NCBI RefSeq assembly: GCF_030384885.1
Contig: NZ_CP128613.1
From: Escherichia coli
Lineage (GTDB): Bacteria > Pseudomonadota > Gammaproteobacteria > Enterobacterales > Enterobacteriaceae
Reading direction: 5' to 3' (one strand)
DNA: 64,000 nucleotides
Below the pieces are notes generated by a model that did no database searches, had not been told where the DNA came from, and saw only the letters and a program-made list of their open reading frames with translations. Positions 30,579 through 31,395 of this stretch are shown here, piece after piece; positions within the stretch are counted from its first letter, which is position 1; each line of letters opens with the position of its first letter. Made by a program: the position numbers and the translations under genes.

Positions 30579-30762
30579 ATTACGGCTCCAGAGTTGTTAT
30601 CAAACTATCACCCACCCATATTATTGGGCTGATTAATAATTAGTTCAGTCAGGGCATAAACGCCAGTAACCGGAAATAAGACACTTTGTGATCTCTCTCG
30701 CATCCGATTACTTTTTGTAGAAATATGATGAAGTTACTTCACTTATTTATGGATGAAATCAC

Positions 30763-31395
30763 ATGGATCCCTTGCACGCCGTTTACCTGACCGTAGGACT
30801 GTTCGTGATGACTTTTTTTAATCCGGGAGCCAATCTTTTTGTGGTGGTGCAAACCAGCCTGGCTTCCGGTCGACGCGCAGGAGTGCTGACCGGGTTGGGC
30901 GTGGCACTGGGCGATGCGTTTTATTCCGGGTTGGGTTTGTATGGTCTTGCGACACTCATTACGCAGTGTGAGGAGATTTTTTCGCTTATTAGAATCGTCG
31001 GCGGCGCTTATCTCTTATGGTTTGCGTGGTGCAGCATGCGCCGCCAGTCGACACCGCAAATAAGCACACTACAACAACCGATTAGCGCCCCCTGGTATGT
31101 CTTTTTTCGCCGTGGATTAATTACCGATCTCTCTAATCCACAGACCGTTTTATTTTTTATCAGTATTTTCTCAGTAACGTTAAATGCTGAAACACCAACT
31201 TGGGCACGTTTAATGGCTTGGGCGGGAATTGTGTTCGCATCAATTATCTGGCGAGTCTTTCTTAGTCAGGCGTTTTCTTTGCCCGCTGTGCGTCGTGCTT
31301 ATGGGCGTATGCAACGCGTTGCCAGTCGGGTTATTGGTGCAATTATTGGTGTATTCGCGCTACGCCTGATTTACGAAGGAGTAACGCAGCGGTGA
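30763..31395 (+). CDS. yahN: LysE/RhtB-family amino-acid exporter
   Basis: 210 aa, MDPLHAVYLTVGLFVMTFFNPGANLFVVVQT...; in-frame stop 3 codons upstream of the ATG. Confidence 0.85.
   Translation: MDPLHAVYLTVGLFVMTFFNPGANLFVVVQTSLASGRRAGVLTGLGVALGDAFYSGLGLYGLATLITQCEEIFSLIRIVGGAYLLWFAWCSMRRQSTPQISTLQQPISAPWYVFFRRGLITDLSNPQTVLFFISIFSVTLNAETPTWARLMAWAGIVFASIIWRVFLSQAFSLPAVRRAYGRMQRVASRVIGAIIGVFALRLIYEGVTQR

Follow-up and report, generated by a model that had tools for sequence, protein, structure and literature searches.

Background

Two general patterns are close to what we describe here. The first concerns annotation of bacterial genes, where choosing the longest open reading frame may take as the start an upstream in-frame ATG that is conserved only in close relatives, with the conserved start lying downstream. 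The second concerns class II CRP-dependent promoters, in which a near-consensus CRP site, occupied in vivo, stands at a fixed spacing from a -10-like hexamer and no -35 element is recognisable; the canonical class II position of the CRP site is centred at -41.5, as in galP1 or melR. We believe that yahN of Escherichia coli resembles both. It differs from the usual over-extended start in that a natural frameshift allele and two further spacing variants separate its candidate start codons, and it differs from a plain class II case in that its CRP site lies in an intergenic region that is divergent in E. coli, and could also serve yahO.

The gene studied here lies in a 64,000-nt stretch of E. coli DNA (assembly GCF_030384885.1, contig NZ_CP128613.1), which we call the window. 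Its closest described counterpart is yahN of K-12 (b0328), annotated with 672 nt and 223 aa (NC_000913.3 345666..346337; NP_414862.1; also DH1). The K-12 gene is an orthologue in the same place (prpR-yahO-yahN-yahM-yahL-yahK), preceded by an identical CRP site and an identical -10-like hexamer, and over the 630-nt body the two genes are 95.2% identical, with 4 amino-acid differences. However, K-12 has an extra T at position -1, which leaves a 13-codon extension in frame, so that the annotated protein has 223 aa as against 210 aa in the window. The YahN proteins of Citrobacter, Salmonella enterica subsp. arizonae and diarizonae, Trabulsiella, Yokenella, Edwardsiella and others are like that of the window: 210 aa, opening with M-[DE]-P-x-H-A, at 76-89% protein identity, and mostly preceded by the same arrangement of CRP site and TAnGAT. 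Unlike the window, they have other leader sequences and lengths (26-32 nt predicted) and other upstream neighbours.

The gene, its family and the CRP site were thus already known; what we add is only a small correction of annotation, reached by way of a natural frameshift allele. A literature search for the start codon, the transcription start, ribosome profiling or an N-terminal peptide of yahN returned nothing specific.

Proposed explanation

The lineage of the window has lost a T directly 5' of the ATG at 30763, at a position that, we propose, lies within the 5' untranslated leader. Because the lost base would belong to the leader, the protein would be unchanged; the leader would shrink from 28 to 27 nt, the distance from the Shine-Dalgarno element to the AUG would be 1 nt shorter, and nothing else would be affected. 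The 13 codons that K-12 has in addition (MMQLVHLFMDEIT) are most likely untranslated, as the ATGATG pair with which they begin would overlap the -10 element of a conserved class II CRP-dependent promoter. In the E. coli group, ATGATG would have come into frame only by a previous loss of 1 bp from the leader, which brought its distance to the ATG from 40 to 39 nt, and the second deletion would have taken it out again in the window (38 nt). For this explanation as a whole (a functional yahN of 210 aa, a deletion in the leader, over-extension of the K-12 start and a class II promoter) we estimate a probability of roughly 0.8. The deletion looks harmless, an ordinary lineage-specific 1-bp polymorphism, and it implies no new biology.

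The yahN reading frame in the window

In the window, yahN occupies 30763..31395 on the plus strand (an ATG start, 210 codons and a stop). It stands in the order prpB-prpR-yahO-yahN-yahM-yahL-yahK, which is conserved, and the divergent neighbour yahO, a DUF1471 periplasmic protein according to its reading frame and annotation, lies at 30303..30578 on the minus strand. Upstream of ATG 30763 the yahN frame is closed at the third codon by a TGA (30754-30756, plus strand), so that translation across the start reads ...YG*NH-MDPLH (the asterisk is the stop). The ATGATG pair (30725-30730, plus strand), which is the annotated start of the 223-aa form in K-12, lies 38 nt before ATG 30763 and is here out of frame; it opens an incidental frame of 21 codons (30725..30790, plus strand), which reads MMKLLHLFMDEITWIPCTPFT before its stop, overlaps the start of yahN and is a product of the frameshift. 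The initial annotation of the window had described this layout from the letters alone, namely a 210-aa frame from ATG 30763, a stop three codons upstream and an ATG pair 38 nt upstream in another frame, and it was correct on all three points. Genome 2013C-4282, which is identical to the window over the 6.8 kb compared, carries an identical yahN, which PGAP calls as a gene of 633 nt and not as a pseudogene.

The 210-aa product matches Pfam LysE (PF01810) over residues 16-206 (E=1.8e-58, 197.6 bits against a cutoff of 25.6) and TIGR00949 (2A76) with 231.9 bits against a cutoff of 183.95. By profile and by length it falls within the LysE/RhtB family, where the models of the paralogues have lengths of 206-212. 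Its N-terminus is in register with these models, residue 7 corresponding to position 4 of RhtC, residue 16 to position 15 of RhtB and residue 24 to position 23 of ArgO; it is also in register with the full-length LeuE model, and the 223-aa form overhangs the models by about 13 residues. We consider it likely that yahN of the window is an intact and functional amino-acid exporter of the LysE/RhtB family, translated from ATG 30763.

Alignment of the 5' region with K-12 gives a single missing base. K-12 reads ATCACTATGGAT and the window ATCACATGGAT, aligned as ATCAC-ATGGAT, so that the T which K-12 and other E. coli have between C30762 and A30763 (plus strand) is absent directly 5' of the shared ATG. 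The two sequences are consequently not identical over 30720-30770, and the deletion itself is certain. A second difference from K-12 near the start is a T for a G (TTTTGG to TTTTTG) just upstream of the TATGAT hexamer. It had been supposed that one inserted base would add 13 residues (MMKLLHLFMDEIT) and give the 223 aa of K-12. The K-12 length agrees with NP_414862.1, and many non-K-12 E. coli (BEN2908, U12A and others) encode precisely these residues in frame; those of K-12 are MMQLVHLFMDEIT.

The same annotation had offered two readings, either that this lineage carries a 1-bp indel at the extreme N-terminus or that the start in the reference is over-extended. These are compatible, and our results support both. 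The indel exists, as the alignment and its recurrence in other genomes (see below) confirm; its placement, however, needs amending, for the missing base is most likely the one just before the true start codon (position -1), which would belong to the 5' untranslated leader and not to the protein. The comparative evidence also strongly favours an over-extended reference start, as described in the next section.

Conservation of the start codon

We scanned one genome per species for relatives of YahN and obtained 37 loci, from Escherichia, Citrobacter, Salmonella enterica subsp. arizonae and diarizonae, Enterobacillus, Serratia, Pluralibacter, Yokenella, Edwardsiella, Trabulsiella and Edaphovirga. 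At every one of the 37 the protein match opens with M-[DE]-P-x-H-A, at the counterpart of ATG 30763. The in-frame translation upstream of this ATG is not conserved and meets stops in nearly every genome other than E. coli.

The distance from ATGATG to ATG tells the same. E. albertii, Escherichia sp. E1V33 and SCPM-O-B-8794 have 40 nt between the two, E. coli sensu stricto and Escherichia sp. MOD1-EC7003 have 39 nt, the window has 38 nt and one Citrobacter has 37 nt; only the 39-nt state puts ATGATG in the frame of yahN. Among 14 sequences compared codon by codon there is no indel in the 210 codons downstream of the ATG. Hence indels that are not multiples of three are tolerated upstream of the ATG (38, 39 and 40 nt), and none occurs in the 210-codon body of these 14 sequences.

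Five codons upstream of the conserved ATG, K-12 has a further ATG in frame (M9 of its protein), which we weighed as a candidate start and rejected. In the window it does not stand in the yahN frame, and other genera have GGG, GAG, AGG or TAG in its place. What is kept at this position is only GGA, so that a Shine-Dalgarno element fits better than a start codon.

On this evidence ATG 30763 is very probably the functional start in the window, and the 223-aa start of K-12 is probably over-extended by 13 codons. PGAP itself calls yahN with 210 aa in ETEC1731, although a frame of 222 codons is available there.

The predicted promoter and leader

When the 130 nt upstream of yahN were aligned among Escherichia, Citrobacter and Salmonella, two conserved non-coding blocks appeared, a CRP site and a TAnGAT hexamer. 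The CRP-binding site of the window, TGTGATCTCTCTCGCA (30687-30702, plus strand), agrees with the consensus at 9 of 10 positions, and no other match to TGTGA-N6-TCRCA occurs in the 64 kb, where 0.14 would be expected by chance. The identical 16-mer is listed for yahN/yahO of ETEC H10407 as a high-confidence CRP ChIP-seq site (PMC4287617, Table 1). The second block is a predicted -10 hexamer, TATGAT (30724-30729, plus strand), in which A2 and T6 are conserved and which overlaps ATGATG. From the centre of the CRP site to TAnGAT there are 29.5 nt in Escherichia, in eight Citrobacter loci (seven found by pattern scan and Awk4 by alignment), in both Salmonella subspecies and in Enterobacillus, Yokenella and Trabulsiella, with 28.5 nt at one Trabulsiella locus. 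How far the hexamer lies from the ATG varies, which gives the range of predicted leaders mentioned above. Where an autotransporter gene (C. amalonaticus) or an ArsR-like gene (Trabulsiella) lies upstream, yahN still has this arrangement; since the arrangement is kept beside neighbours other than yahO, it belongs to yahN.

From this geometry, transcription is predicted to start at 30736 (plus strand, +/- 2 nt), which would give a leader of 27 nt in the window. The centre of the CRP site comes to -41.5 only if TATGAT is the -10 element and the start lies 7 nt after the hexamer; class II geometry would then place the predicted start downstream of ATGATG. The ATGATG pair is thus probably promoter DNA of the -10 region, upstream of the transcript. 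It is from comparison that we infer the -10 element, the transcription start and the non-translation of the K-12 extension, and we hold the exact promoter model with somewhat less confidence, as reasonably likely.

A generic sigma-70 scan of 30625-31318 gave no -35/-10 pair, which is consistent with a class II promoter without a -35 but is not evidence for one. Among the entries listed in the available portions of the transcription start tables from Cappable-seq (PMC4782308), Adams et al. eLife 2021 (PMC7815308) and Kim et al. 2012 (PMC3415461), none lies near the predicted start in either coordinate version; this is uninformative, because yahN is probably silent in glucose media. An Rfam scan of 30300-31000 returned nothing at E<=1, that is, no known leader or riboswitch.

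Ribosome binding sites were compared before both candidate starts, as had been suggested for the window, and the comparison helps only in part. A weak Shine-Dalgarno-like GGAUGA (30751-30756, plus strand) does stand 7-12 nt before ATG 30763, but the energies do not separate the two starts within E. coli. GGAUGA pairs with -3.1 kcal/mol in Escherichia, which is within background (33% of random positions reach this value), and in K-12 it compares with -2.8 kcal/mol before ATGATG, also background. The ATGATG of the window has no such pairing (+0.3 / +0.2 kcal/mol). Across all taxa, a GGA, GAGGA or AGGGA is conserved in position, with a mean of -4.0 against a background of -1.9 kcal/mol.

Immediately upstream of the CRP site, at 20-60 nt, C. 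amalonaticus, C. sedlakii, Escherichia sp. E1V33 and E. albertii carry a GC-rich hairpin and then a T-run (such as CCACCCGTGGCAACACGGGTGGTATTCT). This hairpin probably terminates the gene before it, and takes the place of the divergent yahO promoter region of E. coli.

Is the extension translated in E. coli?

The alternative that survives best is that E. coli sensu stricto really does make the 223-aa form, alone or beside the 210-aa form, as a young lineage-specific extension. The lineage of the window would then have lost the extension by its 1-bp deletion and reverted to the ancestral start. We regard this as unlikely, although several observations are in its favour. K-12, RefSeq and PGAP all annotate this form, and at least 5,083 genomes keep the extension in frame and free of stops; however, an open frame of only 39 nt at the level of diversity found within E. 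coli is weak evidence for coding. The GGU pairing before ATGATG in K-12 (the -2.8 kcal/mol given above) is weak, and it is absent in the window. There is also a second -10 candidate, TA(G/T)AAA, which lies upstream of the first by 7 nt and in K-12 and some Citrobacter is accompanied by the TG of an extended -10 motif. If this were the -10 element, the mRNA could begin at or near the second ATG, and a leaderless AUG in K-12 is possible.

Against translation of the extension stands, in our opinion, the greater part of the evidence. The extension is absent or out of frame in all genera outside the E. coli group, in E. albertii and in two other Escherichia lineages; it shares bases with the conserved -10-like hexamer, and transcription is predicted to start downstream of that; and it overhangs the paralogue models. 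Two haplotypes of it exist, MMQLVHLF (matched at >=99% in 1,892 records) and MMKLLHLF (about 3,200 records), and the only two polymorphisms, by which they differ, are both non-synonymous, whereas the bodies that go with them show 11 synonymous changes and 0 that are non-synonymous (Fisher P=0.013). Finally, the body of yahN has stayed under strong purifying selection after loss of the extension.

A related possibility is that the 1-bp leader deletion in the ancestor of E. coli sensu stricto not only put ATGATG in frame but gave rise to a de novo 13-residue extension that is translated, for example from a leaderless or an upstream transcript, the window being a natural revertant. This seems improbable to us. 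If it were true, the 40, 39 and 38 nt states would record the birth and the death of a protein N-terminus.

Selection on yahN

Alternatively, the frameshift inactivates yahN, and the 210-codon frame is a decaying remnant, that is, a pseudogene at an early stage. It is true that yahN appears dispensable in some lineages: KE41 has an internal stop, IS elements sit in the start region of 99E2750 and ETEC1731, and the neighbouring yahM is frameshifted in the lineage of the window. Nevertheless, we consider inactivation very improbable. The frame is intact over 210 codons and retains the ATG that is the start in all other genera; the predicted promoter, the CRP site and the Shine-Dalgarno-like element are intact as well; and the allele is fixed in 9 genomes from different hosts. 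The pattern of substitution also speaks against it. Between the window and other alleles, dN/dS of the 210-codon body is 0.04-0.08, and the private branch of the window carries 17 synonymous and 4 non-synonymous changes, the latter conservative, where neutrality would give about 5 and 16 (binomial P=1.4e-7). This ratio of 17 to 4 means that yahN was kept under purifying selection on the branch that carries the deletion. A frameshifted pseudogene would be expected to look different; here the indel lies 5' of an ATG conserved at 37 loci, and with a dN/dS of about 0.05 there is no relaxed selection. The private branch is long and gives no date for the deletion, so that yahN may, though this is improbable, have lost its function very recently.

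A programmed ribosomal frameshift from the ATGATG frame into the yahN frame was also considered, and we reject it. The upstream frame is not conserved, its distance to the ATG varies (38/39/40 nt), and it is absent in most genera.

KE41 and HM24 have a yahN that is 3 nt longer (675 nt). In KE41 the internal stop is at codon 154 of the 210-aa frame, and the gene is annotated as a pseudogene.

Frequency of the allele and its lineage

We searched 5,426 complete E. coli genomes for a 33-mer spanning the deletion and for the corresponding 34-mer with the T. The deletion was found in exactly 9 genomes, whose sources are human, cattle, goat, pig and food, and the T-containing 34-mer in 5,113 genomes (exact match in 5,083 records). 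An 841-nt yahN region at >=99% identity to the window likewise occurs in exactly nine records, among them 2013C-4282, which is also one of the 9 deletion genomes; the yahN region of all other E. coli is 94-96% identical to that of the window. The deletion allele is thus derived and rare. The divergence extends well beyond yahN, since over more than 50 kb (mhp-lac-cyn-cod-prp-yah-bet) the window and K-12 (DH1) are about 94-95% identical, with 97.3% in 56724-64000. Judging by these identities, the source of the window is a rare and deeply divergent lineage of E. coli, which might be one of the cryptic clades.

A single-base indel is the commonest assembly error, but an error of sequencing or assembly can be ruled out here, because the identical 33-mer is present in nine independent complete assemblies and the site is not a homopolymer (CACTATG to CACATG), and in each of the nine the deletion moreover sits in the same divergent allele, which is >=99% identical to the window.

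Implications

The practical consequence is that yahN of K-12 (b0328), like that of thousands of E. coli genomes annotated by PGAP, is probably given a start (that of the 223-aa form) which makes it 13 codons too long. Cloning, tagging or deleting yahN from the annotated start would include or remove promoter sequence, and pipelines for pan-genome analysis could mis-score the 210-aa allele as truncated or frameshifted.

Other features of the region

Other E. coli carry two independent IS3-family insertions within the same 40-nt stretch (ETEC1731 682-1990; 99E2750 from about 1229 onward). One of them is IS2-like, with a TGAAG duplication, and lies right after ATGATGAAG at the predicted transcription start; the other lies within the conserved start codon (after ...ATCACTAT).

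Downstream of yahN, yahM (31412-31652, minus strand) is annotated as a frameshifted pseudogene in 2013C-4282, and it is frameshifted also in the unrelated E. coli KE41, HM24, AVS0068 and U12A. In MG1655, yahM and yahN form a convergent 'excludon' pair (PMC12288877).

Two segments of the window are absent from K-12. About 1.8 kb between mhpR and lacI (7862-9696) encodes a protein with a metallo-beta-lactamase fold (7968-8756) and an AraC-type regulator with a DJ-1/PfpI domain (8776-9729). Between yahK and yahJ, about 5.3 kb (34291-39552) encodes an ABC transporter of the sugar type (two BPD_transp_2 permeases, a double ABC ATPase and a Peripla_BP_4 binding protein) and an ASCH-domain protein; in K-12 a small pseudogene remnant stays at this place. 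Short dispersed repeats at 349-531, 22297-22631 and 27275-27471 have 72-95% identity to several intergenic sites of the same region in K-12 and look like elements of the REP/BIME type.
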